From: Nemertoderma westbladi | Lineage: Eukaryota; Animalia; Xenacoelomorpha | DNA: 51,529 nt | NCBI GenBank assembly: GCA_032718475.1 | Contig: JAUCBJ010008239.1 | Coordinates: 1-51,529, forward strand | Direction: 5' to 3' | In this document: in pieces, positions 11,818 through 36,154 of the stretch | How the letters are laid out: every line of letters starts with the position of its first letter | Position numbering within the stretch: position 1 is the stretch's first letter | Made by a program: the position numbers and the translations under genes | The notes under the pieces: model-generated | What the model was told of the DNA's origin: nothing | What the model saw: only the letters and a program-made list of their open reading frames with translations | Database searches by the model: none

Positions 11818-12063
11818 ATGGACAATGATAGCGGTATATTTAATGTAACAATCACTGAAGAGAATGCATGTAAAGCAAGTTGTTCCTCGGACTTTGACAT
11901 TTACGACACGGAGATAATAACACCGCTAAATGAACTCGATATTCGGTCCACTGATAATAACGGTTGTAAGAGTTCGTCGGAAGGTTCTCCAAACGGCAGC
12001 GCGATATCAACTGAAATAGAAAGCACGTGTATAGGTTCATCGGGCGATGCACGCAGAAATACG
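11818..12063 (+). CDS. CASP8AP2: FLASH/CASP8AP2-like gene, exon 1 (alternative phase-0 donor at 12079)
   Basis: ATG at 11818; acidic N-terminus with DFDIYD, resembling the LDIY/LDLY motif of FLASH. Phase-0 donors ACG|GTGGGT or GAG|GTATAC both fit exon 2. Confidence 0.6.
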
Positions 12064-12449: not shown

Positions 12450-12571
12450 GAGGCGGAGCAACTTCGACAAGAAAACGAAGTTCTTAAGAAAAATTTGGTA
12501 GAACTTTATTACGCGGCTACAACGGAAATAGCAGAGCAAAGATCGAAAATCGCAGTGCTAGAACAATTACG
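12450..12571 (+). CDS. CASP8AP2: FLASH/CASP8AP2-like gene, exon 2 (N-terminal coiled coil, Lsm11-binding region in FLASH)
   Basis: Not in the ORF track. Acceptor TGTTTAG|GAG, donor TTACG|GTAAGT. Encodes EAEQLRQENEVLKKNLVELYYAATTEIAEQRSKIAVLEQLR, which aligns to FLASH [30 protein letters not shown] as I recall it. Ends in phase 2. Confidence 0.75.
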
Positions 12572-14726
12572 GTAAGTTTCTCGTCCATGGAACAATTACG
12601 GTAAGTTTCTCGCCCATGGAACAATTACGGTAAGTCCCTGTAACAATTAAGGTGAGTCCCTCGCCCTTGTCCGGAACAATTACGGTAAGTTCCTCGTGTC
12701 TGGAACAATTACGGTGAGTTCCTGTAACAATTACTTTAAGTTCCTCCTCCCTGGAACAATTACGGTAAGTTCCTCGTGAACCTCGTGTCTGGAACAATTT
12801 TGTTAAGTTTCTGGAACAATTACAGTAAGTTTCTGGAACAATTTCGTTAAGTTTCTGGAACAATTACGGTAAGTTCCACGTGCTTGGAACAATTACTGTA
12901 AGTCCCTCGTGTCTGGAACACTTACGGTAAGTTTCTGGAACAATTTCGTTAAGTTTCTGGAACAATTACTGTAAGTCCCTGCGTGAACCGCGTGTCTGGA
13001 ACAATTTCTTTAAGTTTCTGGAACAATTACGGTAAGTTCCTCGTGTCTGGAACAATTACGGTAAGTTCCTCGTGTCTGGAACAATTTCGTTAAGTTCCTG
13101 TAACAATTACGGTAAGTTCCTCCTCCCTGGAACAATTACGGTAAGTTCCTCGTGTCTGGAACAATTACGGTAAGTTCCTCGTGTCTGGAACAATTTCGTT
13201 AAGTTCCTGGAACAATTTCGTTAAGTTCCTGGAACAATTTCGTTAAGTTCCTGTAACAATTACGGTAAGTTCCTCGTCCCTGGAACAATTACGGTAAGTT
13301 CCTCGTGTCTGGAACAATTACGGTAAGTTCCTCGTGTCTGGAACAATTACGGTAAGTTCCTCGTGTCTGGAACAATTACGGTAAGTTCCTCGTGTCTGGA
13401 ACAATTACGGTAAGTTCGTCGTTCATGGAACAAATACGGTAAATCCCTCATCCATGGAACAATTACGGTAAGTTCCTCGTGTCTGGAACAATTACTGTAA
13501 GTTCCTGTAACAATTACGGTAAGTTCCTCCTCCCTGGAACAATTACGGTAAGTTCCTCGTGTCTGGAACAATTACGGTAAGTTCCTCGTGTCTGGAACAA
13601 TTTCGTTAAGTTCCTGGAACAATTTCGTTAAGTTCCTGGAACAATTTCGTTAAGTTCCTGGAACAATTTCGTTAAGTTCCTGTAACAATTACGGTAAGTT
13701 CCTCGTCCCTGGAACAATTACGGTAAGTTCCTCGTGTCTGGAACAATTACGGTAAGTTCCTCGTGTCTGGAACAATTACGGTAAGTTCCTCGTGTCTGGA
13801 ACAATTACGGTAAGTTCCTCGTGTCTGGAACAATTACGGTAAGTTCGTCGTTCATGGAACAAATACGGTAAATCCCTCATCCATGGAACAATTACGGTAA
13901 GTTCCTCGTGTCTGGAACAATTACTGTAAGTTCCTCGTGTCTGGAACAATTACGGTAAGTTCCTCGTGTCTGGAACAATTACGGTAAGTTCCTCGTGTCT
14001 GGAACAATTACGGTAAGTTCCTCGTGTCTGGAACAATTACGGTAAGTTCCTGGAACAATTTCGTTAAGTTCCTGTAACAATTACGGTAAGTTCCTCCTCC
14101 CTGGAACAATTACGGTAAGTTCCTCGTGTCTGGAACAATTACGGTAAGTTCCTCGTGTCTGGAACAATTACGGTAAGTTCCTCGTGTCTGGAACAATTAC
14201 GGTAAGTTCGTCGTTCATGGAACAAATACGGTAAATCCCTCATCCATGGAACAATTACGGTCAGTTCCGGTAATAATTACAGTAAGTTCCTCGTCCGGGA
14301 ATAATTACGGTAAGTTCCTGGAACAATTACAGTAAGTTCCTCGTGTCTGGAACAATTACGGTAAGTTCCGGTAACAATTACTGTAAGTTCCTCGTGTCTG
14401 GAACAATTACGGTAAGTTCCTCGTGTCTGGAACAATTTCGTTAAGTTCCTGGAACAATTTCGTTAAGTTCCTGTAACAATTACGGTAAGTTCCTCCTCCC
14501 TGGAACAATTACGGTAAGTTCCTCGTGTCTGGAACAATTACGGTAAGTTCCTCGTGTCTGGAACAATTACGGTAAGTTCCTCGTGTCTGGAACAATTACG
14601 GTAAGTTCCTCGTGTCTGGAACAATTACGGTAAGTTCGTCGTTCATGGAACAAATACGGTAAATCCCTCATCCATGGAACAATTACGGTCAGTTCCGGTA
14701 ATAATTACAGTAAGTTCCTCGTACGG
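12561..14726. repeat. Satellite of 29-bp and 22-bp units with higher-order structure (left part)
   Basis: Units GGAACAATTACGGTAAGTTCCTCGTGTCT and GGAACAATTTCGTTAAGTTCCT, roughly 80 units, each with an internal dyad GGAAC...GTTCC. Confidence 0.95.
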
Positions 14727-16646
14727 TAAATTGGAGAGATACGCCTATTCCTACTATCGGAAGAGACGGTAACAATACCTGCAATATCCTACTGTAAAGT
14801 TTGTAAATCAAATCATAAATCCGACCTTCTCACCAAAACAGTAAACCCCAAGTAAGCGAATATATTGCAGTATCGATCTCTTTTAACCGGTGAGGCAGAA
14901 AACAGTCTACGAGCAGACAAACTTCGATAAAACAAAATCCCGCGCAGCGAATCCTAAAATCAGGCTGACTCACTGACGGACTAAGAGGCTCGTATACTTT
15001 GCCGCGGTGTGATTTATATATGGTTGGGCAAAGGGACGCTAGCTAGGTACAGAGCAGATTTGGAGATGTCTAACTAGCGAGCAAAGTGCAGTAAGGACGA
15101 AAGTTAATTTTATATATTTCGAGGTGTAAATAATTTCTAACGCACGTGTGTTAATTCTGAACGGTCAAAGCAGTTTTGCTCCTTCACATATATAATTACT
15201 GGGTATGGTGTGCATTTTACGAATATTCTAATTTGTAACTTGTAGGTCCAATACTCACGAATGATAAGGTTCCTTCCCCTCTTGCGTATTTCCAGGACTC
15301 AAATTCAGGCATAAGGTTAATACTACGCCCAGAATTCGGCAATTTTAGGTACCAGGTCCCTGATACTAAGAAGAGATGTGTTAGTTTACTACTGTAGGCG
15401 TACGGGTACTAATAGCTATCCTGGCTCCTATCTAGAATTTTAGTCACCCAGGTAGTCCAGGTAACTTCCTATTAGGGCGTTGGCGGGGACACGGTAGATG
15501 TTAGTATATCCCTGATAGCCTCAATTTATTTGCGCCTAGCGTAAACTGCCCTACCGCCTGAACGGTACAATCCCAATTCAGGTGAAAACACAGCAACCCC
15601 TTTAGCCTACAAGTTCTGATGTAACGGACACCGTTGTACGGTAAATAGTCGCACACACACCTGTACTTAGCAAGAGTTAAGCGTACAGTTTGCTGCACCC
15701 TAACCAATGTGTATGCCTTGTACCGGTGTGCCTACGTCCTATCTGCGTACTAGTATCTGCTCTCTCTCTCTCTCCCCCCCGTAGGAATATGAAGGTCTAC
15801 TGCGGTTTTTCCTGAATCAAGACAGTACAGTCCCTATGATGTAATTTTAGGCTTGCAGCGTGTCACTACGTCTACCTTTGATCTTTTGGTCTTACACTTA
15901 GGTAGCAAGGATCGAACGCTGTCTAACCTTTCAGGCGATGGGCGAATAACTAGATGGTATTGCGGGTTGTCTCCCGTCTACATTCCCGTGATGTTCCCGT
16001 TCATTGCTGCGGCCCGATCTCTAGCTGGCCATCCTGTCCCTGAGTTTGTTCACCGTAGTGAAACCATATTAAAACAGATAGAAAAGGGCTGAGATGTGAC
16101 TAGTATTTCTGACTTTATTACAAAACATATAATAACTATTATACAATAAACAATGTAATCTGAAATAAGACAGAAAGCGAATGATGGAAATTGCAGTAGT
16201 GATTGAGAACTAATGAACGAATCGCACCTTTATATACTAAATTTGTGCCGCAATCAATCGAGAAAATTCTCGATTGTTCTATGGGTTCTAACAAGGTTTT
16301 AAAGATAGCTTATTGGTCCAGCTAATATATAACTTGCACGACATTGGTTACAATCAAATAACTACAGCCTTATTGGTACAGACAAATGCAATTAATTTGT
16401 AGCGGTTAATTTAAATGAGTTGAAATTCTGCACAAAAAATAATTCGCACTTACTAGGATTTGAACTCGATACCTACTATACTTATAATTTCCAACGCTCT
16501 ACCAACTGAGCTACTGAACCACTTGACCGATAGATGCATAATAGATAGAACCAATACTAATGAGAACTCAAAGCAATCTTTACAAAGTTAATTCGAATAA
16601 AATAAAATTTTGAAAATCCACGGCATTTAGGGAATATAATTCTATA
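14727..16646 (-). repeat. 3' LTR (1,920 bp)
   Basis: Direct repeat of 29774-31693 at a constant offset of 15,047. One substitution seen (15640 G vs 30687 A). Confidence 0.95.
16434..16520 (-). ncRNA. tRNA-derived Pol III-like unit inside the 3' LTR (U3)
   Basis: GGTTCAG-TAGCTCAGTTGGTAGAGC (A box/D arm)...GAGTTCAAATCC (B box)...TTTTTT terminator. Cloverleaf stems other than the D arm are poor. Confidence 0.55.
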
Positions 16647-16654
16647 CCGCTCCA
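16647..16654 (-). other. Short polypurine-tract candidate
   Basis: TGGAGCGG directly abuts the 3' LTR on the element strand. Confidence 0.5.
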
Positions 16655-17504
16655 TGAAAACAGGATATTATCGTGCATAAATATACGGTTTTCACCAATA
16701 ATCAATCAAACTATAGAATACTTAGGGCGTACTTACATATTTACAATTAAGTTTCAAACAATACTTCCTTTCTACGTAATGATTCGATACAAAATAATTA
16801 CAAATTCAAACTTTACGTATTTAAGGCTTTACTAAGTAAGTACAATATAAATCTAAATTAAATTCACCAATATAAATCTATTGCATCTCAAATATTGCAT
16901 AAATTCAAACAATTACAAATACAAATAAATGAAAACAATAAGAAAGGCTCGCGAGTCTTCCATCTACTATTGCATCTCAAATATTGCATAAATTCAAGTA
17001 ATTACAAATACTTTCGTACCTAAATGTAGATTGCATAAGTTTGGAATAATTACAAATATGAGTCTTTCTGAGCACAAAATTTTCTGTCTATAAAACTTTC
17101 TATTTCACTGTAAATACAAATACTGCTTATAAGATATAAATTGCATAATATTCGGAACAATATAAATTGCATAAGTTCAGAATAATATAAATTGCATAAG
17201 TTCGAAATAATCACGTAAATATAAGATATAAATTCTTACTAAATATAAATCTTACTAAATATAAGTCTTTACTTAAATATTAATATAAACTGCATAAGTT
17301 TAGAATAATATAAACCTTTGCATCTCAAATATGAAACATAAATCTTTCAAATATAAGTTCCTTCTAAATATAAACTTTCTAAATTTCATAAATTCGGAAC
17401 AATACAAATTGTATGAGTTTTCTAAATATAAAACATATAATTCAAAATAAATCACAAATCATAAGAAAGGCTCACGAGTCTTCCGTCCACCCTTGCCCTC
17501 CTTT

Positions 17505-18968
17505 TCATCGCTTAGTTGATCGAGCCCTGCCGCGTCCTCGAAAACTGCGCACAGGTGACTTTGCTCGCGATATGGGACTTGTGGGGCGAGTCACTGGTTT
17601 ACTTGGGACGTTGAGAGACGGTGCGACTATTTCCTCACAAATTCGTCTATTTGGCATCCCAAAACCTCGACCAATTCCTCGTGACCGATCAGTCGTCACT
17701 ACAGTTGGTAGAACGTCTGGGAACGCGTGAGAAGCGGACGACGCAGACCCAAGAGTAGCTTGCGCCCCCTGTTGATCAGCTGGTGTATGTCCCGATCCTC
17801 CTACTGGTTCTCTTGGAAGTGATACCGTATCCCGAGTAACTCGAATAGTCGGCTCAACTCCCTTGCGTTCTTCCACATTAATAATTTTCTTCAATTGTTG
17901 GCCCACTTTCTGGACCCGTATGATCCTACCCTGCCCGTCCTCCCGAGGGTGACGTGCAGACGGCGCAACCGGAGTGGCTGATATATTCGTCGCCTCTAGG
18001 ACCTCTTCTTCCTCGAATACGCTCGCTCGTATACGTTTATGGTAAAACGCGGCTCGGTACGCCCATGCGACGGTTAACCAAGCTCCTTTATTCCGCTTTT
18101 CGGTTCGGAAACGATCAAATTCACCATACGTGATACGATTTACGACTTTCTGAAAATTCCACGTGTTTTTGTTATCCGGGTGAATCTGTAACAGATACTC
18201 GCGCACCACTCGAAATCCGCTGTCGTGGGGCAAAATATCGACAACCTCGATAAGTTCGTCATACTGGGGCATAGCGGAGATATATCCTTCCGACATCATC
18301 GTCTGGGGATTTACCGCCCAAAATCCGAGATGCGCTCTCATCGGAAACCGTCTTCTTTGTGCCGATACATGTTCGTCGGCCAAATCTTCCCACTCATCAA
18401 ATAACTTCCTCACGAGTTTTACAGATTCATGTTCATAAGGTATGTCTCTTAGTTGGCATTCAGATGCTCGATGTCCCTTTATATTGCAGTAAGTACATTG
18501 AGCCATAAATCTCCAGCAAGTATAAAAGGTATGAGACCCTTGATCCCCACACCATCCACAGATTAGCTGAGTCGTAGTAATGTGCTTTCCACTGCACTTT
18601 GCCATATGATGTCCAGCGACGCCACATTTACTACACATCGTATTAGCAGGGTACCACACTCGTTCGTATATAAGATCTCCAATCGGTCGAGCGCTTCCTC
18701 CCATACTATAATCGTAATCATCTGGGTCTATGGGTTGGTAGGTTTCTGAAGGTTGTATACAAACTATAGCATCTGTTGCTTCAAGTTGTCGAATCTCCGT
18801 CTGAGATTTCTTCGGGAGGTTCCTTTCTATCTCAAGAAGTTCCTCTAAAGGATCGTCGGCGATCGTAGTAGTTACGTTGAAATCATCACCGAGGTGACCG
18901 ATAGGCGCGCGCGTCTGCCGTGATTCATCCGTAATTTCCACAATACGTTCTCCTTCATAAGGTAACAT
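17505..18968 (-). CDS. Retrotransposon accessory ORF3: triple CCHC zinc-knuckle protein with RG-rich tail (487 aa from first ATG)
   Basis: CSKCGVAGHHMAKC, CGWCGDQGSHTFYTC, CTYCNIKGHRASEC; C-terminal RSRGIGRG and RGRGRAR. No signal peptide or TM segment apparent. The frame is open back to about 19016. Confidence 0.8.
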   Translation of the reverse strand: MLPYEGERIVEITDESRQTRAPIGHLGDDFNVTTTIADDPLEELLEIERNLPKKSQTEIRQLEATDAIVCIQPSETYQPIDPDDYDYSMGGSARPIGDLIYERVWYPANTMCSKCGVAGHHMAKCSGKHITTTQLICGWCGDQGSHTFYTCWRFMAQCTYCNIKGHRASECQLRDIPYEHESVKLVRKLFDEWEDLADEHVSAQRRRFPMRAHLGFWAVNPQTMMSEGYISAMPQYDELIEVVDILPHDSGFRVVREYLLQIHPDNKNTWNFQKVVNRITYGEFDRFRTEKRNKGAWLTVAWAYRAAFYHKRIRASVFEEEEVLEATNISATPVAPSARHPREDGQGRIIRVQKVGQQLKKIINVEERKGVEPTIRVTRDTVSLPREPVGGSGHTPADQQGAQATLGSASSASHAFPDVLPTVVTTDRSRGIGRGFGMPNRRICEEIVAPSLNVPSKPVTRPTSPISRAKSPVRSFRGRGRARSTKR

Positions 18969-19621
18969 AGTTGTTGATGGTTCGAACACCTCGCCAATAT
19001 CGGTTCGGGATTTTCCTTATTCAAACGCATCGGAATCGCATTTCGTTGTTCGCGCATACAAGAACCGCATTGATAATAAAGTTTATAAACTGAAAATGCT
19101 TCTTTGGTTTCTCTATCGTCCCCTCGAGTTCGTCTGTAAAGATGCATTCCATCGAATTCATCACGTACCGCGGGCATAGGTTCGTGCGCCTTTAGGTATT
19201 GCATGGTATGATACAAACGACTAATTTCAGTATCGGGGTCTTCGCTAATGTCTCCCGTATCACACAAAGCATCGTACGGGTAAAGTTCGTTGAAGGTTTG
19301 GCGCAAACTTTCGATTCTTTCGTTCAATGCGTTTTGCCTTCTCTTTAATACATTCGAGTCATATTTAGTTCTCGCGAGTTTCGCTGTACTTTCCGATAAT
19401 TCTTTTATACCGAATATAGTATAATCCTTGGCTCCAAATCTTTCGAATGGCGCTGCTGCCTCCTCTTGGATATCATATCCCCACCTCGGCTCTCCTTGTA
19501 TCCCTTTCTCCATAATTAGAGGTGTAGTTACATAATCATTACTACTAGAGGGAATACAACAGAGTTTGTAGTTAGTTGTGAGGAGACGTGAGAGTTTCGT
19601 CTGCCCTTTGGGCTTCGACAA
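18872..19621 (-). CDS. Retrotransposon accessory ORF2, unknown function (first ATG 19513, 213 aa)
   Basis: Intact ORF with a helical/coiled segment (RRQNALNERIESLRQTF) and a possible CxxC...CxxH zinc site (CGSC...CSNH). Overlaps ORF3. Confidence 0.7.
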   Translation of the reverse strand: MSKPKGQTKLSRLLTTNYKLCCIPSSSNDYVTTPLIMEKGIQGEPRWGYDIQEEAAAPFERFGAKDYTIFGIKELSESTAKLARTKYDSNVLKRRQNALNERIESLRQTFNELYPYDALCDTGDISEDPDTEISRLYHTMQYLKAHEPMPAVRDEFDGMHLYRRTRGDDRETKEAFSVYKLYYQCGSCMREQRNAIPMRLNKENPEPILARCSNHQQLCYLMKENVLWKLRMNHGRRARLSVTSVMIST

Positions 19622-20174
19622 CGCTCTAACCTCCTACCCATAGCCTAAGATCTAGGGTTTCTTTAATGACACGCTGCTTCTTATCTAAAAATTTTTGCCG
19701 AAATAAAAACGAATTTGGGCTAAACTGGCTGTGAGTCTAAAATACTCACTTTTTGATCCCAAACTATTATCAGAAAATAAGCAGTCAAGAATTAGTAATA
19801 AATATAGGGGAGTCTATTTTGACGTAACTTATTGAAACAAGACCGTGTAAAATTTTAATTAAAATTTTAAGAAAGGCTCGCAAGTCTTCCTCTCTTGTTT
19901 CTCTAATTTTAAGTTCCACCCGACTGTACCCTGAAATCTATTCACTGGAGAAAATTTTAAAAATTTTTCAAATCCAAATGGATTGTCTAAAATTTCGAAA
20001 ATGTCTCAATATTGTGAGTTCCAAGTAGAATTCCATTTCTTATACCTACAAATCCCGCTCCTATGTGACACATAAGGGTACTACCCTCAATGTTCACATA
20101 TAAAGACAATGGAATTCTACCGCTGTCCTTAATACGGTGTACAGGTACGTGGAAATCTATTTGTAAACTCCTAA

Positions 20175-23100
20175 TTATTTACTAGTATTAGGTGGAGATT
20201 TGTAGTCTCCAGACTCGTTACGAGTCTCTTCAAGAAGTACGAGACGTTGAGTCGGTCTGTCTACTGTACGACCGTCAATTGTCCGTACTGTCACAGTTCT
20301 TGTCACTCCATCCATAGATGGATGTGTGGCTAAAATGACACCTGTTATCCAGAAGCGTCTTTTTAGATTCACTTCTGCCAACAGCACGTGATCTCCCGGC
20401 TTTAATGCGCGGGTGTTATTGTACCAGTTTGTTCTGGCAGAAATAGAGGGCAAATAATGGTTTTGCCATATTTCCCAGAATTTGTTAGCTAGTAATTGCG
20501 TGATTTTCCACGCTTTTCTCCCGTAACTATCGCTTTCCATTGGAATGGAAAGCGGCGTCAAAGTCGTCGGTGCCTGCATTAGCAGGTGTGCCGGTGTCAA
20601 AGCAAACTGGGATTGTTTGTCATCGGGTACTAATACTATTGGTCTAGTATTTAGTATTGCCTCGATTTCAACAAACAATGTTGTCAGTTGGTCGTCTGTT
20701 AATATGTGGTTTACTGGAATGACCTTTGCCATGGCTGTCTTTATAGATCTAATCAATCTCTCCCAGACTCCGCCTCTCCAAGGACTATCTGGAGGATTGA
20801 ACTTCCAAACAATCTTGTGAGGTTGCAGTTCGTTTGAGATTTGATCATGATCTAATTTCTTAAAGGCTCTAGCAATCTCATTCCGAGCACCAACAAAGTT
20901 TGTCCCTTGGTCTGAGTACAAGCATTTTACTAATCCGCGTCTAGCGATAAATCGCCGTAGTGCTAGTATAAACGCGTTGGTGGAAAGATCCATCACACGT
21001 TCAATGTGAACTGCCCTACTGGACATACATGTGAAAATCAGTCCCCAGCGTTTTACTAGTATACGTCCACGTTTAGTATGTATGGGACCAAAGCAATCAA
21101 TTCCAGTCTCTGTAAAAGGTGGTCTGAATGCTTGAAGTCGTGCTTGTGGTAGTTCACTCATTTCTTGGGTACCTATTCTAGAATGTACCTTTTTACAAAT
21201 AATACACGTACGTGTCACTGAACTTAATGCTTTACTGGGTCTAATTAATACAAATCTAGTACGTAAGTAGGAAAGACAGTGGTGTCTTCCAGCGTGTTTC
21301 AGATGTAAATGTGCGTCCAGTATCATTGCACGTTGTAGTTCGTGGTGTTGCGGTATTATTATTGGGTACCTAAAGTTCGTGTTAAAGTCAATGTTTTGAA
21401 GCCGAGATTTATGACAAATTAAGCCATTATAAATAATCGGACTCCAACTCAGTATCGGTGACGACTTGATTGGTTGACCTTGATTTATAGATGTGAATTC
21501 GCGCGCGAAATATCGCAGTTGGTAATGGCGAATTAATTTAATCTCACACCTGTCAATCTCAGCCAATGTAAGTCGACGTGTGAAGTCACGTTTGCCTTTA
21601 ACGTATTGTACAAAACGTACAATCCACGCTAATTTTCGGCAAGCGTTTGACCAAGAATCTGTTAGGTTTACAATACGGTCGACATAAGTATTTGTGACGT
21701 CATCAGGTAAGTCAATGGAGAACTTGGAAGGTTTCGAATTACTAGAAGGGCCCACGGGTCCGCCGGTAAGTATTCCCTTGTTGACTGTTGATCCGTCCGG
21801 GTCTACAAGTAATTTGTCCTTCTTTGTCTTCTTACCTTGATTGTCGGTACTTTGTAAGTCGATCGTTAATGGTGGTTTGAACTCTATGGGGTCAGCAGGT
21901 TTCGGTAAACTTATTTTTCTGCCGACATTAATCCCAGGTCTCACCACAGGTTGTAAGTTCGGTATGTCTCTTGAGCGCAAAGTAACACCTGTATTTACAT
22001 TAGCGTAGGTACTACCCACATCTGCAATACATGAGGTTTCACCATGCTTATGGTTGCCCAAGTGTGTCAAAATTGGTAGTTTGTCAATACAAGGCCGCTC
22101 CAATAGGGAAACTGCGGCTTTATTGTTAGTCAATACATTACTAGTGTCTAGTCGACTGTCTAGTAGTGTGTCTGGCGATACGTCTGGTAACGTATCTGGT
22201 TGTTTGTCACTAGAAGGCCGCTCCAATAGGGAAACTGCGGCTTTACTGTTTGTCAGTGTGTTACTAGCGTCTGGTGGGACATTTTGTGATATGTCTGGCA
22301 AAATGTCTGGTTGGCTGTCTAGTAACATGTCTGGTTGACCGTCTGGCGATATGTCTGGTGTAGAAAGGCTCGCAAGTCTTCCTCTCTTGACCTTTGAAGT
22401 TATATCCTTCCATTTCGCCTTCGGTTTTTTCTTGAGTTTCGCCGCCGTCGTCCTTTTCTTTGTCTTCCCCTTTTTTGGTTTCTTGATTTCGGCGTCCTTA
22501 GGAATGGTGTTGGACTTGTTGTCGTATAACGGAGGCCAATCTTGTGTCGATTTCTGCAAGAACTGGGGTCCGTGTTGCCAAAACTCTTTGTTCTCCGGTT
22601 TACAGAATTCCTCAGGCATCATTCCTCGCGACGCAATATCAGCTGGGTTTTGTGGTCCGGGACAATGTCGCCAATCCTCTTTTATCGAACGGTCTAGAAT
22701 CTCTGCGCGACGGTTAGCTACGAATGTCTTGAATTCGAGTGTGTCGTTGTTTATGTAAAATAAAACCAACGTCGCGTCAGTCCAATAAAATATCTGTAAA
22801 CTCGACTGTAGTTCTGTCTGTATGAGGTTCACGATGGTGGTTGACAGGGTCGCGGCTTGTAGCTCGGCTCGTGGTGTCGTCATATACTTAGTAGGCATGG
22901 TCTTAGCCTTGGAAGTAATGAGCGAAACATCGAACTCGTCTGATTCTACTTGTCTGCGCAAATACGCTGCCACACCAAACCCGTTGTCACTGGCGTCAGA
23001 AAAACAGTGTAGTTCCAAGTTGTCAGGAAATGTACTCTGTAATGGAAAGTAAACCCTGGGTATGGAATAATCCTCTAACGAAGACAATTCCGCCTCCCAG

Positions 23101-26100
23101 GTCTTCCATAAGTCCACTTGATCTGATGAGATCGGCTCGTCCCACGTTAGTCCATCCTTCCATATACTGCGCATATAAATGCGGGCTTGCAGTATTACTG
23201 GACTGATGAATCCTAACGGGTCGAACAATCGGCTCAACTTTGACAAGCATGATCTCTTGGTCAGTGTGTTTCCTTGACTGTCCAGTCTCACCTTCACTCG
23301 AAAGTTGTCTGTGTTTGGGTCCCAAAAGAGCCCCAACACCTTAGTCGTCGGTAGTGGTTCGAACTCTAGGTCTATGTCACCACCTCCACGCTCAGTAGTT
23401 CCGAATGAGTCAACTAATTCGGCACTGTTTGAGGCGAATTTGGTGAGGTTAAAACCTCCGCTCGCCAAGCAGTCCCGTAATTGATGTGCTACTGTTGTAG
23501 CACGTTCTACTGTGTCGCAACTCTGTAGTCCGTCATCAACGTAAAAGTCACGTTCTACAATTCTAATTATCTCTGGGTCATACAGATGTTTCTGATCTCT
23601 AGCGGCTTGCTTCAAGGCGTACATCGTACAATTCGGGCTGTCTCTGGCACCGAAAACGCGAACTTGCATTTGGTAAGTCGCTGGTGGTAGACTTAAGTCC
23701 CCTTCCGGATACCAGAGAAACCGCAAACTGTCTCTGTCTCGCTCTAACGCTTTCACTTGGTGAAACATCGCTTCAACGTCGCAAGTAAAGGCTACTTGAC
23801 GCTGACGGAAGCGCATAATCACCCCCATAAGATAATTATTCATGTTCGGTCCATCCATCAACTCACTATTGAGGGACATTCCCTCAAACAGAGCCGCACA
23901 GTCATTGACTACGCGTACTTTATCTGGTTTGTCGGGATGTCTCACATAGTGATGTGGCAAGTAGTACGTCTGGTCTGTCACTCGCTCCGGGTTAGTCATT
24001 CGGATAGCGTATCCCTTCGTCAAATACGTCTCCATCTGAGTGTTGTACTGCAGATGGGCTTTCTCGTCCTTTAATAGACGTTGTCGGATTGAGTGTAGAC
24101 GTCTTAAAGCCAGTGGGTAGTTATTTATAAGTTTAGGACTTTGGCTACGCCATAACATACCCACCTCGTAATGTCCGTCCTCCGTCTGTCGGATAGTATC
24201 CTCCATGATCTTTAGAGATTGTTTCTCCTGTTCCGACATACAAGGGTCGTAGCTACCAGGTTCAGCTGTATCTTGTTCTAACCACCTGATAGTCTTCTCC
24301 GTTAATTCTTTGTCCAAGGCGGCTTGTTCCAACTGATGAATTTTCAACGCGTCATCGTCGATATCGATGGGCACTGTTGAAGTTATTGGGGTAGGTAGAC
24401 TCGCAAGCCTATCATCTGTCGTCGATGGAATCTCTAGCTGATTCGTCTTCTCCCCAAGTTCTAAACTCACCTTGTGGATTAGCTGCTCCTTGTGACTTAT
24501 CATACTAGTTACACGTCTGTGATGTTTTGTCGACTGTAGCGTAGTATGGTTCACGTCGTGTGAAAAGGAATGAATTGAGTTTGTAGTCAATAAACTACAT
24601 GTACTCTGTACGTCGTCTTCCTCGTCACTTACGTCCAGTGTGCGCACAGGCGCTCGAGTATACCACCCTATCGGCGTTCTGCAGGCGTATGCGTTTCCTG
24701 CTACAACTGCCGATGGTCTGGTTTCCCACACCTGATGTAGGTTGAATTGGTCCGTCCCGATCAGCATTGCTACCGATCTATAATTGACAGGACATTCGGG
24801 TACACCAAGGTGTCTGAAATACTTACGGTCCTCCAGAGATTGTTCCGGCACTGGACCTAGTAGGTTACTAAAGTCCTTCGTGGCCGCAAAGGTTAGATCT
24901 CTAAAGGGCAACAAAGACCTCTCCCTCTCGCTGTGTTGCGATTTTGGAAGAAGAGAGTCTAAGTCCAACTTAACTCGTGTCACTGGTATTGCACGCTGTC
25001 CGTGCATACTACTTACTGTATAACTGACGTGCTTACCTTGTCTAAGATCTGTTACGACGTCAGCTATCTTTTCATCTACGTAACTGTGAGATGAGGCTGA
25101 GTCTAGAATCGCGTAAATCCTCTTACTCCCTTTTGTGCCAGTAACTTTAATCGGGATTACACTGAATCCCTTCAGTTGGTCAGTGGTCAGGAGCGCGATT
25201 GACGGTTGTTCGTCTCCATTTGAATATTCGTCGTCTTCTGATTCTTCGTCCGACGATCCGGATTGTTCTGAAAAGCAATCCTCTATATGGGTCACGAAAG
25301 TCGGAGTTGTTTTCGATTCCCGTTTTCGGTAAGCCGCATCACATCTCGCTGCTGCTTCCGGGTGTTCCCTGGCGAAGCGTTTCGTCGGCGTGTGGCTGTC
25401 TGTGTGGAGCAGACCGTCGTGGTTGCGTCCACAGGATGGACAAGTGTCGGTATTTGGGCAATCCTTACGGACGTGTCCGTGTTGCGTACACCGCCAACAA
25501 GAGTCCAGTGGCCGTATCTGCAGCCGTCGTTCTTCTGAGTTCAACTCGCGAAATTGTCGACAACCCCGTAACTTGTGACCAATATACCGCTTACCTAAAT
25601 GTTCGCAGTATTGGCAGCCGTTGAAGTCGGCGCTGAGTTGCTGTCTCGTCTGTTTTGTCCCAATGGGCGCAGATACTCTATTACCGTCTGAGAATTGTCG
25701 TGATTCCGTCGGTGTGGCGTAAGTGGCCGTCTTTGTGGATGTTGTCTGGGGTTTTTGTCGGTTGGAGGATGGCAGTGTGATCCCTTCTGCCACGATGTGC
25801 TGGTCGGTATAGTTAGATCGAGTTTCTACTACCGCCTCCCTGGATATTAAAAGGTACACATCTTCTAATTTCAGGAATCCTCCTCGCTCCTCTCGCTGAT
25901 ATTCGACCTTCCTCCACTCCCGACGAAGTCGATGGTGGAGTCGTCCTATTATCTTTAATAAAACGGTAGGGGTATTTCCGTAATCAAGTTGTCCAATTGA
26001 TCTTAAGGTAGTGATAGCGTTCTTGATTTCGTCAGCTAGTTTTAGTAAGTCGACGGGTTTAGTGATAGCCCCTCCCTTACAGAGTTCTTCTATTACTGAC

Positions 26101-28961
26101 CTGGCCATACTCACTGTACCTCCGTATATCGAAGTCAAACGATCGTACGCTAGTTCGAAAGCGTCTGGTACACCGACGAAAGTCTCCGCCAAACGTTTAG
26201 GTTCTCCTGACAACGTTTGGAGCAGGTAATTGAACTTCTCCCGTGATGTAAAGGCGCACACGGCGATCTGGGATTCGATATAGTCTACGAAGGTATGCCA
26301 GTGTTTTGAGCTACCGGAGAACTTCGGTGGTTGTTGTACCGGCAATCCCTGTCTGGCTGCGAATTTCGCTATCTCCTCGGCAACGTTCAGAGTTTCGCGT
26401 CCTTGGTTGGTAGTCTGGTTGATGTTCTCCCTTCTAGGCGCTTTTCCCTGATACGATGTGGGGTTTGAAGGTACCGGTCTTTGTGGTCCCTTCGGGTGTC
26501 TATTGTGTTCGAATTCGGAATTTCTCGAACTGTCGGTGTAACCTTCCTCCAGACGTTCCTCAATCCGGGCCAACTTGTTGACAATGTCGGCGAACTGTTG
26601 CGCACCGATCGCGCCCGCTGGTGGTAACGCCTTCTGTGTCGGTGTATTCTGTGGTGGATTATCTGCAAAAGAGTTGTCTGAACGCTCGCGTTTATATTCA
26701 TCGGCCGCCCCCGTTCTAAATACCTCGCGTTTCGGGTAATCCGATTCGCTCGAAGTACTACTATCATCTGGATATGGTGGTCGACGTGCTCGCGTTCGTT
26801 GCGTCGTTCGAATTCTAACGGCTCGTTTCGGAACATCGTCCACTGATCTCCGTTGTTCGGTAGGCTCACAAGTCTTCCTCGAAGTCGTAGATTGCGATGT
26901 AAACTGGTTGAACGGTCGCGTCTCCACTGTTCTCCGTTGTTCGGTAGGCTCACAAGTCTTCCTCGAAGTCGTAGATTGCGATGTAAACTGGTTGAACGGT
27001 CGCGTCTCCACTGTTCTCCGTTGTTCGGTAGGCTCACAAGTCTTCCTCGAAGTCGTAGATTGCGATGTAAACTGAACCGGTGGGCGAATGACAGCATTTG
27101 AAACCGCTGGCCTTGTTGGTCGAAACGTCATTGGGTAAGCGTAATGTGTAACGGGTTTTGGTGTCAAAGGTGGACTCACCTGTTTTGTCGTCAGTAGTGC
27201 AGGTCCGACTAATAAACTACTACGATCTGTAATCGGTGGGTTACTTACCTTGACTCTCGGAATAGGCGACGACGTTGCTCTTGGCGGTATAAACTCGTTC
27301 GGAATAACAAACCTGTGTTCCGTCGCACCATGGATAGGAGAAATATCACTACTACCCGCAATCGAAACAGGTTCCTTAGTCGTAACCGGTGCAAACATAT
27401 GAGTTACCTGTGGGAATCGTTGACACACGTCTTTTACTAATTGTCGTTCCCGTCCGGGTGCTCCTACGCTTCCTTCCTTCTTCCGTTCCTGAATTTGGCG
27501 ATGTCTTACCTCTAACTGGTCCAAATCATGTCCGTCGCGAGATCTCATCGATCGATCGCGGGCTAGAAGATCCAGATTTTCCTTAGTTTCGGCTAATTCT
27601 CTCGCCCTCTTCTCAAGTTCGAAACGAAGTTTAACTTCCTTTTCTCGTTGTTCCGTTTGTTGTTGTTGCGCCTCGAACTCTGCTTGTCGTATCGCTTGTT
27701 GGGCTTTTATTTGCCGTGTCTTCATCTCGACTCTGGCTTCCGAAACTACTCTTTGTCGCTCTAACTCTGCCGCAGCCGTTTGTCGCTCTAACTCTGCCGC
27801 AGCCGTTTGTCGCTCTAACTCTGCCGCAGCCGTTTGTCGCTCTAACTCGGCCGCTGCCGCTGCCGTTTGTCGCTCTAACTCGGCCGCTGCCGCTGCCGTT
27901 TGTCGCTCTAACTCGGCTGTTGCCGTTCGTTGCGCTAACTCGGCCGCTGCCGCTTGTTGGGCAATGTCCAACTCTAACCTTTCCATTTCGGCCGCTTCGA
28001 GTTCGGCTTGTTCCTGCAGATGAGAGATTCTCGCTACATTCGCAACACGTATTTTCTCTTCCTCTACTGCTGTTTGTATCATTAGAAGTTGAGCTTGTTC
28101 TTCTATCTCGTGTTGCTGTCTGTAGAACTGCTGCTGTTGTCGAGCAACTTCTGACGTGACTATACTTCCTTCGCAGATTTCGCTACGAATACTTACCAAT
28201 GATTGATTTAGTATTCCCGGTGCCGATTCGATTTGTGCGAATGAAGTTTCCCTCGTGTATTCCGGCACGGTTTCCAAATCGCCGACGTCTTCGCCGCACA
28301 TGCGTAAGTGGTCCGTCAGATGTTTCAATTGTCCATCCAGTCGGTACAATTCCTGTTCTTCCTCGGGTTGTAATAATTCGTCCGAAACTGACTCACCTAA
28401 CAACTGGTCCGCTTGTTCCTGTTGTATCTGTCTAATCGTCGACTTAAACTGAATCAGTTTCTCTCTAGTGATCATTAGTTTCTCGAGGATTCTAAGTTGA
28501 GTATCCATGTCCTGTCTCTGTCTAGCTAGATCTTGTAGGCCAACTAGATTATCTACGGACTTATATACTTTACTCTGTACTCTAACCTGGAGGGTGTAGA
28601 ACTCGAATCGAGACATCGGAGCGGTCAACCCGTCTAATATGCGTTGGCCTTCTCCAATACTCCTGGTTATATGCGCCATGTATCCTCCGACGCTTCTAAC
28701 CACACTTTCTGTGCTTCCTGCTGAACTTACCAATTCCGTTTCCCTGTATCTAGGTTGCGGAACAGTTAGAAAGTCCTCGGTCCTGCCGTCGCCTCGTACT
28801 ACGGCATCCGGTACTCCCGTTGGATGTACTGGTGACGCACACGGTGTAGGTTCGGTAGGCTCGCGAGTCTTCCCCTGTGGTTCTTCCGCTGCTGACTTAT
28901 CCGCGTCACATGAGTCATAGTCGGTTTGTGTATTTTTCGTATAGTCTTGTTTGTCACTCAT
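20175..28961 (-). CDS. gag-pol: BEL/Pao Gag-Pol polyprotein, 2,928 aa (Gag-PR-RT-RNaseH-IN)
   Basis: Gag PKFSGxxxxWxxF (DUF1759-type); three BEL knuckles (CQYC..H..C, CWRCTQHGHVRKDC, CPSCGRNHDGLLH); protease AILDSAS; RT YLPHH, CDVEAMFHQV, FYVDD; RNase H FSDAS, PRAELQAA, WTD, NPADIASRG; integrase HHCC, GIDCFGP, SDQGTNF, GGVWERLI. Confidence 0.97.
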   Translation of the reverse strand: MSDKQDYTKNTQTDYDSCDADKSAAEEPQGKTREPTEPTPCASPVHPTGVPDAVVRGDGRTEDFLTVPQPRYRETELVSSAGSTESVVRSVGGYMAHITRSIGEGQRILDGLTAPMSRFEFYTLQVRVQSKVYKSVDNLVGLQDLARQRQDMDTQLRILEKLMITREKLIQFKSTIRQIQQEQADQLLGESVSDELLQPEEEQELYRLDGQLKHLTDHLRMCGEDVGDLETVPEYTRETSFAQIESAPGILNQSLVSIRSEICEGSIVTSEVARQQQQFYRQQHEIEEQAQLLMIQTAVEEEKIRVANVARISHLQEQAELEAAEMERLELDIAQQAAAAELAQRTATAELERQTAAAAAELERQTAAAAAELERQTAAAELERQTAAAELERQTAAAELERQRVVSEARVEMKTRQIKAQQAIRQAEFEAQQQQTEQREKEVKLRFELEKRARELAETKENLDLLARDRSMRSRDGHDLDQLEVRHRQIQERKKEGSVGAPGRERQLVKDVCQRFPQVTHMFAPVTTKEPVSIAGSSDISPIHGATEHRFVIPNEFIPPRATSSPIPRVKVSNPPITDRSSLLVGPALLTTKQVSPPLTPKPVTHYAYPMTFRPTRPAVSNAVIRPPVQFTSQSTTSRKTCEPTEQRRTVETRPFNQFTSQSTTSRKTCEPTEQRRTVETRPFNQFTSQSTTSRKTCEPTEQRRSVDDVPKRAVRIRTTQRTRARRPPYPDDSSTSSESDYPKREVFRTGAADEYKRERSDNSFADNPPQNTPTQKALPPAGAIGAQQFADIVNKLARIEERLEEGYTDSSRNSEFEHNRHPKGPQRPVPSNPTSYQGKAPRRENINQTTNQGRETLNVAEEIAKFAARQGLPVQQPPKFSGSSKHWHTFVDYIESQIAVCAFTSREKFNYLLQTLSGEPKRLAETFVGVPDAFELAYDRLTSIYGGTVSMARSVIEELCKGGAITKPVDLLKLADEIKNAITTLRSIGQLDYGNTPTVLLKIIGRLHHRLRREWRKVEYQREERGGFLKLEDVYLLISREAVVETRSNYTDQHIVAEGITLPSSNRQKPQTTSTKTATYATPTESRQFSDGNRVSAPIGTKQTRQQLSADFNGCQYCEHLGKRYIGHKLRGCRQFRELNSEERRLQIRPLDSCWRCTQHGHVRKDCPNTDTCPSCGRNHDGLLHTDSHTPTKRFAREHPEAAARCDAAYRKRESKTTPTFVTHIEDCFSEQSGSSDEESEDDEYSNGDEQPSIALLTTDQLKGFSVIPIKVTGTKGSKRIYAILDSASSHSYVDEKIADVVTDLRQGKHVSYTVSSMHGQRAIPVTRVKLDLDSLLPKSQHSERERSLLPFRDLTFAATKDFSNLLGPVPEQSLEDRKYFRHLGVPECPVNYRSVAMLIGTDQFNLHQVWETRPSAVVAGNAYACRTPIGWYTRAPVRTLDVSDEEDDVQSTCSLLTTNSIHSFSHDVNHTTLQSTKHHRRVTSMISHKEQLIHKVSLELGEKTNQLEIPSTTDDRLASLPTPITSTVPIDIDDDALKIHQLEQAALDKELTEKTIRWLEQDTAEPGSYDPCMSEQEKQSLKIMEDTIRQTEDGHYEVGMLWRSQSPKLINNYPLALRRLHSIRQRLLKDEKAHLQYNTQMETYLTKGYAIRMTNPERVTDQTYYLPHHYVRHPDKPDKVRVVNDCAALFEGMSLNSELMDGPNMNNYLMGVIMRFRQRQVAFTCDVEAMFHQVKALERDRDSLRFLWYPEGDLSLPPATYQMQVRVFGARDSPNCTMYALKQAARDQKHLYDPEIIRIVERDFYVDDGLQSCDTVERATTVAHQLRDCLASGGFNLTKFASNSAELVDSFGTTERGGGDIDLEFEPLPTTKVLGLFWDPNTDNFRVKVRLDSQGNTLTKRSCLSKLSRLFDPLGFISPVILQARIYMRSIWKDGLTWDEPISSDQVDLWKTWEAELSSLEDYSIPRVYFPLQSTFPDNLELHCFSDASDNGFGVAAYLRRQVESDEFDVSLITSKAKTMPTKYMTTPRAELQAATLSTTIVNLIQTELQSSLQIFYWTDATLVLFYINNDTLEFKTFVANRRAEILDRSIKEDWRHCPGPQNPADIASRGMMPEEFCKPENKEFWQHGPQFLQKSTQDWPPLYDNKSNTIPKDAEIKKPKKGKTKKRTTAAKLKKKPKAKWKDITSKVKRGRLASLSTPDISPDGQPDMLLDSQPDILPDISQNVPPDASNTLTNSKAAVSLLERPSSDKQPDTLPDVSPDTLLDSRLDTSNVLTNNKAAVSLLERPCIDKLPILTHLGNHKHGETSCIADVGSTYANVNTGVTLRSRDIPNLQPVVRPGINVGRKISLPKPADPIEFKPPLTIDLQSTDNQGKKTKKDKLLVDPDGSTVNKGILTGGPVGPSSNSKPSKFSIDLPDDVTNTYVDRIVNLTDSWSNACRKLAWIVRFVQYVKGKRDFTRRLTLAEIDRCEIKLIRHYQLRYFAREFTSINQGQPIKSSPILSWSPIIYNGLICHKSRLQNIDFNTNFRYPIIIPQHHELQRAMILDAHLHLKHAGRHHCLSYLRTRFVLIRPSKALSSVTRTCIICKKVHSRIGTQEMSELPQARLQAFRPPFTETGIDCFGPIHTKRGRILVKRWGLIFTCMSSRAVHIERVMDLSTNAFILALRRFIARRGLVKCLYSDQGTNFVGARNEIARAFKKLDHDQISNELQPHKIVWKFNPPDSPWRGGVWERLIRSIKTAMAKVIPVNHILTDDQLTTLFVEIEAILNTRPIVLVPDDKQSQFALTPAHLLMQAPTTLTPLSIPMESDSYGRKAWKITQLLANKFWEIWQNHYLPSISARTNWYNNTRALKPGDHVLLAEVNLKRRFWITGVILATHPSMDGVTRTVTVRTIDGRTVDRPTQRLVLLEETRNESGDYKSPPNTSK

Positions 28962-29043
28962 TTCGGTAGTTGTAAGTCAAGTGAAGTGAGTGTCAAAGTA
29001 TCGAGTTTACCGTATTTGTATAAAACGGTACTAATTACAGTCA

Positions 29044-29168
29044 TATAAAATTAGCCTACCGGCCGATTTTATAGCAGATGGATAAAATTAGCCTAAACGG
29101 CCAATTTTACAGCAAATAAATGTCACGGAATAAGTATATAATAAAATTAGCCTAGCGGCCAATTTTAT
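29044..29168 (-). other. Three tandem hairpins in the 5' leader (packaging/dimerisation signal candidate)
   Basis: Three copies of ATAAAATTAGCC-(4-5 nt)-GGCCRATTTTA just upstream of the gag ATG. Confidence 0.55.
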
Positions 29169-29762
29169 AACAAATAAATCAGATAACGATATGCGTTATC
29201 AAAAGGTAAATTAAATACAATAATACGGACTAATTCAGCAATGAACAAAGAAATCGTACGGAATGCATAAATACTTGAGACAGTGGAACCCACAATAATT
29301 TTAACTAAATACGGTAATGCCTAACTTATTTATGCAACTTTTCGAACTCACCCACTCCAATAATTCTCCAGAAAAACAGATTCCCAGATACAAACCGAAC
29401 GTGAACCTTTCCGTTTTTTAACGTTGCGGACGAAACGCGATTTTCCCAACCAAAGTTGTTGAGTTATCTATCTCCCAAACTTGCTAAACACGGTCTTGCT
29501 CCCGTTACAGTCTAGAAAATGAGTTCTGAATCCTGAAAAACAAAAGAGTTAGGTTTTACTTTACGAAAAATTTTGTACCGGTACAATATGGTATTTAAAC
29601 CCTTTTAAACACCGGTATTCAATTCCAAAAAATATTTTACACGCGGTTCAAATCAAATTTTATTTCAAAAAATTAGCACTTAGCTAATCAAATACAAAAT
29701 TTTACCTCAAAATACAAAATTTTCAAATAACTTTAGTCCTACCGAACCGTAGTTCAGTAAAA

Positions 29763-29773
29763 CATATTCCTAC
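29763..29773 (-). other. Primer-binding-site position, non-tRNA type (GTAGGAATATG)
   Basis: Abuts the 5' LTR, lacks TGG, and is the exact reverse complement of LTR positions 30828-30838. Confidence 0.6.
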
Positions 29774-31254
29774 TAAATTGGAGAGATACGCCTATTCCTA
29801 CTATCGGAAGAGACGGTAACAATACCTGCAATATCCTACTGTAAAGTTTGTAAATCAAATCATAAATCCGACCTTCTCACCAAAACAGTAAACCCCAAGT
29901 AAGCGAATATATTGCAGTATCGATCTCTTTTAACCGGTGAGGCAGAAAACAGTCTACGAGCAGACAAACTTCGATAAAACAAAATCCCGCGCAGCGAATC
30001 CTAAAATCAGGCTGACTCACTGACGGACTAAGAGGCTCGTATACTTTGCCGCGGTGTGATTTATATATGGTTGGGCAAAGGGACGCTAGCTAGGTACAGA
30101 GCAGATTTGGAGATGTCTAACTAGCGAGCAAAGTGCAGTAAGGACGAAAGTTAATTTTATATATTTCGAGGTGTAAATAATTTCTAACGCACGTGTGTTA
30201 ATTCTGAACGGTCAAAGCAGTTTTGCTCCTTCACATATATAATTACTGGGTATGGTGTGCATTTTACGAATATTCTAATTTGTAACTTGTAGGTCCAATA
30301 CTCACGAATGATAAGGTTCCTTCCCCTCTTGCGTATTTCCAGGACTCAAATTCAGGCATAAGGTTAATACTACGCCCAGAATTCGGCAATTTTAGGTACC
30401 AGGTCCCTGATACTAAGAAGAGATGTGTTAGTTTACTACTGTAGGCGTACGGGTACTAATAGCTATCCTGGCTCCTATCTAGAATTTTAGTCACCCAGGT
30501 AGTCCAGGTAACTTCCTATTAGGGCGTTGGCGGGGACACGGTAGATGTTAGTATATCCCTGATAGCCTCAATTTATTTGCGCCTAGCGTAAACTGCCCTA
30601 CCGCCTGAACGGTACAATCCCAATTCAGGTGAAAACACAGCAACCCCTTTAGCCTACAAGTTCTGATGTAACGGACACCGTTGTACAGTAAATAGTCGCA
30701 CACACACCTGTACTTAGCAAGAGTTAAGCGTACAGTTTGCTGCACCCTAACCAATGTGTATGCCTTGTACCGGTGTGCCTACGTCCTATCTGCGTACTAG
30801 TATCTGCTCTCTCTCTCTCTCCCCCCCGTAGGAATATGAAGGTCTACTGCGGTTTTTCCTGAATCAAGACAGTACAGTCCCTATGATGTAATTTTAGGCT
30901 TGCAGCGTGTCACTACGTCTACCTTTGATCTTTTGGTCTTACACTTAGGTAGCAAGGATCGAACGCTGTCTAACCTTTCAGGCGATGGGCGAATAACTAG
31001 ATGGTATTGCGGGTTGTCTCCCGTCTACATTCCCGTGATGTTCCCGTTCATTGCTGCGGCCCGATCTCTAGCTGGCCATCCTGTCCCTGAGTTTGTTCAC
31101 CGTAGTGAAACCATATTAAAACAGATAGAAAAGGGCTGAGATGTGACTAGTATTTCTGACTTTATTACAAAACATATAATAACTATTATACAATAAACAA
31201 TGTAATCTGAAATAAGACAGAAAGCGAATGATGGAAATTGCAGTAGTGATTGAG

Positions 31255-31423
31255 AACTAATGAACGAATCGCACCTTTATATACTAAATTTGTGCCGCAA
31301 TCAATCGAGAAAATTCTCGATTGTTCTATGGGTTCTAACAAGGTTTTAAAGATAGCTTATTGGTCCAGCTAATATATAACTTGCACGACATTGGTTACAA
31401 TCAAATAACTACAGCCTTATTGG
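31255..31423 (-). promoter_or_regulatory. Candidate Pol II promoter in the LTR: three CCAAT boxes, TATA box, Inr
   Basis: CCAAT near 31422, 31393 and 31363, TATATAAAG at 31283-31275, TTAGTT at 31260-31255. An AATAAA lies about 95 nt downstream. Confidence 0.5.
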
Positions 31424-31480
31424 TACAGACAAATGCAATTAATTTGTAGCGGTTAATTTAAATGAGTTGAAATTCTGCAC

Positions 31481-31567
31481 AAAAAATAATTCGCACTTAC
31501 TAGGATTTGAACTCGATACCTACTATACTTATAATTTCCAACGCTCTACCAACTGAGCTACTGAACC
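31481..31567 (-). ncRNA. tRNA-derived Pol III-like unit inside the 5' LTR (U3)
   Basis: Same sequence as 16434-16520: A box, B box, T6. Confidence 0.55.
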
Positions 31568-31693
31568 ACTTGACCGATAGATGCATAATAGATAGAACCA
31601 ATACTAATGAGAACTCAAAGCAATCTTTACAAAGTTAATTCGAATAAAATAAAATTTTGAAAATCCACGGCATTTAGGGAATATAATTCTATA

Positions 31694-31794
31694 TACGGGA
31701 ATAATTACGGTAAGTTCCTGGAACAATTACAGTAAGTTCCTCGTCCCTGGAATAATTACGGTAAGTTTCTGAAACAATTACAGTAAGTTTCTGG
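31694..31794. repeat. Continuation of the 29/22-bp satellite after the retrotransposon
   Basis: Same GGAACAATTACRGTAAGTT units resume immediately after the TSD. Confidence 0.9.
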
Positions 31795-32171
31795 AGAGTT
31801 GGGTTCATTGCCATAAGCTGTTTAGAGAATATTGCTTTAGTTTACGTAACACAAAGTTAGAAGCGAGCTAATTTCGTAATATCTGATATACAAAATCATG
31901 TTTCTAGTAGTGTGCCTAATGGTGTCTCACACCCTGGTGTGTGTCGTAATCTCTTTGAAATGATACTTCTTATTTTTTTGAATACCGTAACTCAACCCCC
32001 GGTCATTGAAAATAAGAGATTATGATTGAACAATGAACAACCTTTGATATTATGACATAATTTTTATTTTTTATTTGTTTATTGTATATTGTTTATTTAT
32101 TTGTGAATTTATCGTGAATCGGATTTGATAATATGGATTAGGAGATTATTACGGTTGGTGGAATAGCCATA

Positions 32172-35922: not shown

Positions 35923-36154
35923 AAAAGTTAAAATACGAGAGGAACTGGATCAAACCTCTCAGATACTTACTGCCGGTGGTAACTCGGATACATCGAGACC
36001 GACAGACGTTGGCGACGGCTGTCGGCTAACTGCCGGTGGTAACTCGGATACATCGAGACCGACAGACGTTGGCGACGGCTGTCGGCTACAGTCGACGGAT
36101 GTCGATCGAATTAAACTAGCGATAGCGTCGGCAGCAGGGGACAGTCGAGCTCGG
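35923..36154 (+). CDS. CASP8AP2: FLASH/CASP8AP2-like gene, exon 3
   Basis: Acceptor AATCGCAG|A in phase 2 completes exon 2's CG to CGA, then KVKIREELDQ... Donor CGG|GTGAGT is phase 0. Contains a 60-bp in-frame duplication. Confidence 0.65.

Follow-up and report, generated by a model that had tools for sequence, protein, structure and literature searches.

The window, i.e. the whole stretch of 51,529 nt that was analysed (Nemertoderma westbladi, contig JAUCBJ010008239.1, forward strand), carries a multi-exon gene whose second intron opens with a long tandem repeat of its own exon-intron junction, and a retroelement sits in the 3' end of this repeat. The features that matter for the discussion are listed below; a slash within a splice site marks the exon-intron border.

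11818..12063, plus strand: exon 1, coding part, 82 codons from the ATG at 11818, donor ACG/GTGGGT; joint from run X4, frame checked
12450..12571, plus strand: exon 2, 40 codons plus 2 nt, coiled-coil-like peptide, with splice joints at both ends in X4 contig 11; the repeat derives from its final 11-17 nt
12561..14726, plus strand: junction-spanning minisatellite, main part, 80 units with 46 exact pseudo-donors; units single and diverged towards the 5' edge, duplicated in blocks in the centre
12572..12577, plus strand: authentic 5' splice site GTAAGT in the first unit, where the X4 contig switches to exon 3
14722..14726, plus strand: left target-site duplication TACGG (5 bp), right copy at 31694-31698
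14727..31693, minus strand: Pao/BEL LTR retroelement in the 3' end of the array, assigned from its LTRs and gag-pol domains
31694..31795, plus strand: four remnant satellite units severed by the insertion, 2 with ACG/GTAAGT and 2 with ACA/GTAAGT
35923..36154, plus strand: exon 3, acceptor from the X4 loose end, donor CGG/GTGAGT at 36155 predicted from the frame
36613-38373 and 42158-48394, plus strand: probable further exons, from long ORFs and frame

The search for sequencing runs gave 4 runs from 3 studies, none of which is recorded as RNA; X4 is labelled 'DNA?'. X4 nevertheless behaves like an RNA library, in that the single-copy intron stretches 12248-12427 and 31714-32049 are not covered by it. 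Among the contigs aligned to 11600-12675, X4 contig 11 (227 nt) consists of 12035-12062, then 12449-12578, then 69 loose letters. Its first joint, from 12062 to 12449, skips 386 nt bounded by GT..AG. The loose letters correspond to the window from 35930 onwards, and letters 12572-12578 fit the first 7 letters of exon 3 with 2 listed differences. In this one contig of one run, exon 2 is spliced to exon 3, the first donor being joined to the acceptor at 35923 over a distance of 23,351 nt. An earlier reading, made from the sequence only, had taken 12450-12571 as an exon, and the splicing on both sides bears this out. No X4 contig continues beyond 12578 into the array, and there is no X4 contig depth after this position. 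X4 is the sole RNA-like run and is known as contigs; as contigs lose rare variants and nonsense-mediated decay (NMD) would remove decoy-spliced RNA, a minor use of downstream donors is possible. Reading past the first donor gives 82 + 41 = 123 codons and then TAA at 12573-12575, which agrees with the stop and the product of about 123 aa that the sequence-only reading had proposed, and all downstream donors lie 3' of this in-frame TAA. For X6 and X7, which come from other organisms of the X4 study, 0 contigs cover exons 1-2 at 80% likeness, a result that is uninformative on sister species.

There are two further observations on the 5' part of the gene. At position 11818 an X4 contig (depth 52.5 of 52.5) is without one base, the A of the exon-1 ATG, and the frame then has no upstream ATG before the stop at 11673; X2 retains the ATG. 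Candidate causes are a start-loss allele, a non-AUG start or an unseen upstream exon. Another X4 contig (12035-12238) enters intron 1 at a depth of 36.5, as compared to 41.2 for the spliced form. Downstream of the weak GTGGGT donor, intron 1 has an in-frame stop (12142-12144) and an AATAAA (12288), and we regard the contig as a weak hint of intron retention or of an early-ending short isoform.

As to the identity of the host gene, the exon 2 peptide was presumed to be FLASH-like, and the claim of a FLASH-like N-terminal region was not confirmed in PDB, Pfam, two protein collections or the Atlas. Homologues of exon 2 were found neither in PDB and Pfam nor in the 5.8-billion set (longer lengths tried) and the 1.84-billion representatives, and the best Atlas value (0.89) is below lead level. 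Exon 1 has no match in PDB, no homologue was found for the last-exon region 1130-2083, and a Pfam search for a C-terminal SANT/Myb-like domain gave no match for the ORF of the last exon or for its 97 C-terminal aa, though a diverged domain or an extra exon could escape this search. FLASH/CASP8AP2 is described, in the part of PMC5636114 available to us, as having an N-terminal coiled coil with Lsm11-binding residues 100-139 and an upstream LDLY motif. Of the FLASH residues named in that part, 4 out of 10 match at one register, a score that 2115 of 20000 shuffles also reach. Exon 1 contains FDIY at residue 26, which is 64 residues ahead of the E107 equivalent as against 52 in human FLASH (same excerpt of PMC5636114). 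The assignment of the host gene to FLASH/CASP8AP2 is unproven, and the name of the gene does not affect the verdict on the array. The 2083-codon last ORF also contains a 21-bp coding repeat (43236-44391, 55 copies, higher-order period of 189 bp) that gives an Arg/Ser/Glu-rich repeat region.

The minisatellite was delimited by TRF to 12561-14696, with a period of 29 and 78.7 copies. Parsed on the common core, it contains 80 units up to 14726, of which 50 measure 29 bp, 25 measure 22 bp and the remaining 5 differ from both, and with the four-unit remnant the total is about 84 tandem units. The exact exon-2 donor ACG/GTAAGT is found in 47 of the 80 units, the true donor included, which leaves 46 exact pseudo-donors downstream; GTRAG sites number 58 across the 2.2-kb array (57 besides the true donor). 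The two length classes differ in their donors: ACG/GTAAGT occurs in 41 of the 50 units of 29 bp, so that most of these do carry the exon end with a consensus donor in tandem as originally read, and in 5 of the 25 units of 22 bp. The GT is lost (at the +1 G) in 16 of 80 units, and 15 of the 25 short units are without it. By exact match, the array has 39 copies of the 17-nt core (exon end plus GTAAGT), and the rest of the window has none. The unit itself is quasi-palindromic, and the array combines two unit lengths with higher-order blocks. Singletons are frequent among the first units (13 out of 17), whereas the centre of the array contains a duplicated block of 11 units.

Alignment of the units with exon 2 shows that the commonest unit resembles 17 nt of the exon, back to 12555, and the 29-bp unit is composed of the last 17 nt of exon 2 and the first 12 nt of intron 2. 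The array had been placed exactly at the end of exon 2; instead it begins inside the exon. Its derivation from the exon-2/intron-2 junction, on the other hand, is upheld by the unit alignment together with the spliced contig. None of the 7 other splice junctions of the host gene that were checked is repeated (0/7). As regards length variation between alleles, unit variants and the empty insertion site described below differ between samples, and no contig can span the array. An assembly artefact at the ends of the array was considered and ruled out, as exon 2 and the first units are continuous in X2 contig 8, and contigs of X1-X3 join the last units to the unique flank.

The original reading also let the array end at 14726. 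It is in fact split by a 17-kb retroelement, with four further units at 31694-31795. The LTRs of this element (14727-16646 and 29774-31693) are 1920-bp direct repeats with 1 mismatch. The ORF at 20175-28976 on the minus strand encodes a 2933-aa gag-pol with the Pfam domains Peptidase_A17 (2.5e-42), DUF5641, DUF1759 and Integrase_H2C2, and it is followed by two further ORFs, one at 18872-19633 (253 aa, no family) and the other at 17505-19016 (503 aa, weak zinc knuckles). With a Pao peptidase, a BEL-type gag-pol, two LTRs and a target-site duplication, the sequence of 14727-31693 identifies it as a Pao/BEL LTR retroelement, and the insertion is very young. It is like other Pao/BEL elements in Peptidase_A17, DUF1759, DUF5641, the integrase zinc finger, the LTRs and the 5-bp target-site duplication, and it differs from them in its TA..TA ends, its 1.9-kb LTRs and the two extra ORFs after pol. 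The ends of LTR elements are usually TG..CA.

The empty insertion site is seen in X1, X2 and X3, where the contig of the unique flank runs leftwards via the remnant units into satellite and not into LTR. X1 and X3 represent one sample and X2 another; this view comes from among the longest pieces listed, and a carrier allele is possible in these samples. Over 31696-32165 the X1 empty-site contig is identical to the window. Intron 2 measures 23,351 nt with the retroelement and 6,379 nt without it, so the 23-kb intron noted earlier is true of the allele in the window, but 17 kb of it is a recent insertion and about 6.4 kb remain without it.

Several other repeats were found in the window. In the DNA runs the first 240 bp of the LTR have a summed contig depth of about 1e5, in X4 of 1-3e4. 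The start of the LTR contains a tRNA/SINE-like stretch (about 31465-31530 and 16420-16485, minus strand) with A- and B-box-like motifs seen by eye; Rfam gave 0 matches over 11500-36000, and ARAGORN 0 tRNAs. The same intron has a second array at 32172-34359 (2.2 kb, 38-bp unit, 57.8 copies, 93% matches), in which there is no GTRAG, and a perfect 256-bp palindrome at 34922-35177 with two 128-nt arms that are 100% complementary and have no spacer, a candidate for a MITE-like element or an assembly fold-back. Broken LINE-type reverse-transcriptase fragments (RVT_1) are located at 39007-40617 on the minus strand and at 5237-5992 on the plus strand. Tandem arrays longer than 200 bp make up about 15% of the window.

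Nothing suggests that the donors of the array are preferentially retained by selection. Over the 80 units the conservation of the donor nonamer is 0.928 as against 0.957 for the other 12 core positions, with the reservation that the units are related and the events not independent. A lone unit folds into a GGAAC/GTTCC hairpin of -5.2 kcal/mol (z +0.39), 123 of 200 shuffles being as good, and the fold at the first site is weaker (-1.2 kcal/mol), both of which had been foreseen from the sequence. In multi-unit folds the pairing partner of every donor, also of the first, becomes the exon copy of the unit that follows (for the first donor, unit 2), because the unit is quasi-palindromic. The predicted opening cost of the first donor is the lowest of the 47 identical sites, 1.67 vs. 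a median of 2.73 kcal/mol in one window setting and 2.17 vs. 3.89 kcal/mol in the other (0 of 46 lower). This gap of 1-2 kcal/mol should be seen against the predicted U1 pairing of about -9.3 kcal/mol per site. The masking observed in the array is 4.54, as compared to a mean of 4.48 in arrays of permuted units with the same donor, 45% of 400 such arrays being at least as high. Hairpin masking as a selected feature was ruled out by this control. Deletion of the array in silico lowers the opening cost of the first donor only from 2.17 to 2.00. Of the suggestion that the decoys are masked, what stands is that none of the 47 is as open as the first donor; permuted units mask equally, however, and the first donor itself pairs with unit 2. 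Its higher accessibility in the folding model may contribute to its choice.

The general features of the locus can be compared with repeats known from human and amphioxus genes. In the excerpts of PMC3087553 and PMC3902484 that were available, the amphioxus 'mirage' minisatellites are tandem copies of exon-intron boundaries with units of 10-160 bp, found in Adh3, the globins BflGb6/BflGb9, TnC and PGBD5. According to the same excerpts they leave splicing undisturbed and are characterized by concerted evolution, diverged edges, length variation, and splice signals in many, though not all, units. As far as these excerpts go, the present array resembles them in its boundary copies, in a splice signal present in many but not all units, in the contrast between a singleton edge and a duplicated centre, and in normal splicing; it differs in size, as the globin mirages described there have 3-6 units vs. 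about 84 here, and intron gain is not seen here.

The human case closest to ours is the 37-bp VNTR in intron 7 of F7, in which the first unit spans the exon/intron border and the donor is reiterated (Borensztajn et al. 2006, PMC1557585, available part). The same layout is reported there for 6-16 (IFI6), intron 13 of CBS, LMNB2 and PDGFA. In this excerpt only the first donor is used in F7, LMNB2 and PDGF, and the first three in 6-16 and CBS. Mutagenesis of F7 indicated that the pseudo-sites are functional yet lose to the most upstream site without masking, and the authors report, in the same part, no structure specific to pseudo-sites. Set against that excerpt, the present locus is similar in its border-spanning first unit, its reiterated donor and its use of the donor lying most upstream. 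It is different in the number of pseudo-donors (46 exact and 57 GTRAG here, vs. 4-25 in the human cases, i.e. 4-8 in F7, 25 in 6-16 and 15-20 units in CBS), in the two unit lengths with higher-order blocks, the quasi-palindromic unit and the split by a retroelement, in the host, which is not a mammal, and in the kind of evidence, which is sequence and a spliced contig here and mutagenesis in F7. The first unit lies over a real exon-intron border, the signal recurs in 47 of 80 units, and the mRNA is spliced at the authentic site in one X4 contig. The array is real and large, and likely an ordinary member of a class of repeats that human and amphioxus genes are known to contain. The available part of PMC10078293 contains no junction-spanning case.

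Taken together, we consider it highly probable that this is a junction-spanning minisatellite of which the first donor is used, the downstream donors being likely silent passengers of a likely neutral expansion. The seed would be a local tandem duplication of the exon-2/intron-2 junction, the direction being, we infer, from exon to array. Slippage and unequal exchange would then have amplified and homogenised the units, probably aided by the quasi-palindromic unit. The spliceosome likely picks the most upstream donor, which adjoins the defined exon and is transcribed first, as in human F7, and the slightly greater predicted accessibility of this site may assist. Rare transcripts spliced from downstream donors would carry the in-frame TAA and would likely be cleared by NMD. 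The Pao/BEL element would have entered the 3' end of the array later, in this haplotype. We read the pattern as a neutral signature because conservation is no higher at the donor positions than in the remainder of the unit, the GT is missing from 16 of 80 units, and a singleton edge stands against a duplicated centre. The second array of this intron, in which GTRAG is absent, and the share of the window taken up by arrays point the same way. Two findings speak against the neutral reading: the first donor is the most accessible of the 47 in the folding model, which is compatible with masking as a contributor, and 46 exact pseudo-donors exceed the 4-25 of the human cases listed in the excerpt of PMC1557585.

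One could also imagine a length-dependent rheostat, in which splicing from downstream donors leads to the TAA and so to NMD or to a 123-aa N-terminal fragment, and in which array length and unit type tune the output. Every downstream donor does lie after the in-frame stop, 46 of them have exactly the sequence of the true donor, human 6-16 and CBS make use of their two nearest pseudo-sites (PMC1557585, available part), and NMD would conceal the products from the contigs. Nevertheless no X4 contig reaches unit 2, the donors are not preferentially conserved, and in F7 there is no competition from pseudo-sites with the sequence of the true one (same excerpt of PMC1557585). Leaky use by itself would not demonstrate regulation either, and we regard this possibility as unlikely. 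A more elaborate version, in which each donor pairs with the exon copy of the following unit and a FLASH-like gene is controlled by the array as by a length-tuned, NMD-coupled dial or a U1 sponge, with the polymorphic 17-kb retroelement giving alleles 3.7-fold apart in intron length, appears very doubtful to us.

The array could alternatively be a landing pad for U1 snRNP that keeps a long intron from being cleaved and polyadenylated prematurely. Telescripting is a known phenomenon in long genes (PMC7544216, available part), the array offers 58 GTRAG sites in 2.2 kb with a predicted U1 pairing of about -9.3 kcal/mol each, and the X4 contig that enters intron 1 hints that the gene can end or stall early. 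The need for such protection is less obvious in an intron of about 6.4 kb, its length without the young insertion, and the true donor alone already recruits U1. There is neither AATAAA nor ATTAAA in the array; the next such signal is at a distance of 1358 nt from the last main donor, where it lies inside the LTR, and of 1845 nt from the last remnant donor, so that the suppression of premature polyadenylation proposed in the sequence-only reading finds no canonical signal within these distances. Its other proposal, a U1-binding array that tunes splicing, is not favoured by donors that show no extra conservation (0.928 vs. 0.957) or by a masking equal to that of permuted units. Our literature search gave no junction-derived array described as a U1 pad; the nearest was a hypothesis on Xist Repeat A, which is without obvious U1 sites according to its authors (PMC7544216, available part). 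With no sign of selection on the donors, we consider this explanation highly improbable.

The question whether the satellite exists at other loci had been raised earlier. Within the window a search for the unit with up to 4 mismatches found, outside the array, only the 4 remnant units at 31697-31770; the minus strand gave no hit at all. An X2 contig over 12340-12620 links exon 2 with the first units. In the DNA runs the loose ends inside the satellite are of satellite type in 4 of the 4 listed near exon 2 and in 2 of the 2 among those listed at 31767. The summed contig depth over the satellite relative to the single-copy flank, which is not a copy number, is about 25x near exon 2 and about 3-45x near the remnant; by comparison, the LTR end reaches about 1e5 vs. 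21-59 in the flank. Depth and loose ends fit one array of tens of units and not a dispersed family. That a dispersed satellite family landed here and supplied or matched the exon end by chance is highly improbable on a search for copies that spanned the window, given that the unit reproduces 17 nt of an in-frame coding exon in register with the used donor, that the loose ends are satellite only among those listed, and that the depth is tens-fold and not thousands-fold.

A neutrally expanded minisatellite at a working splice junction would add one more case in which a spliceosome facing dozens of identical donors settles on the first one, in this instance against 46 exact copies and in a species other than those tested before. 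If regulated use of the decoys coupled to NMD were true, a splice site would have given rise to a dial that sets gene output by repeat length, and as such the array would be of wider interest.
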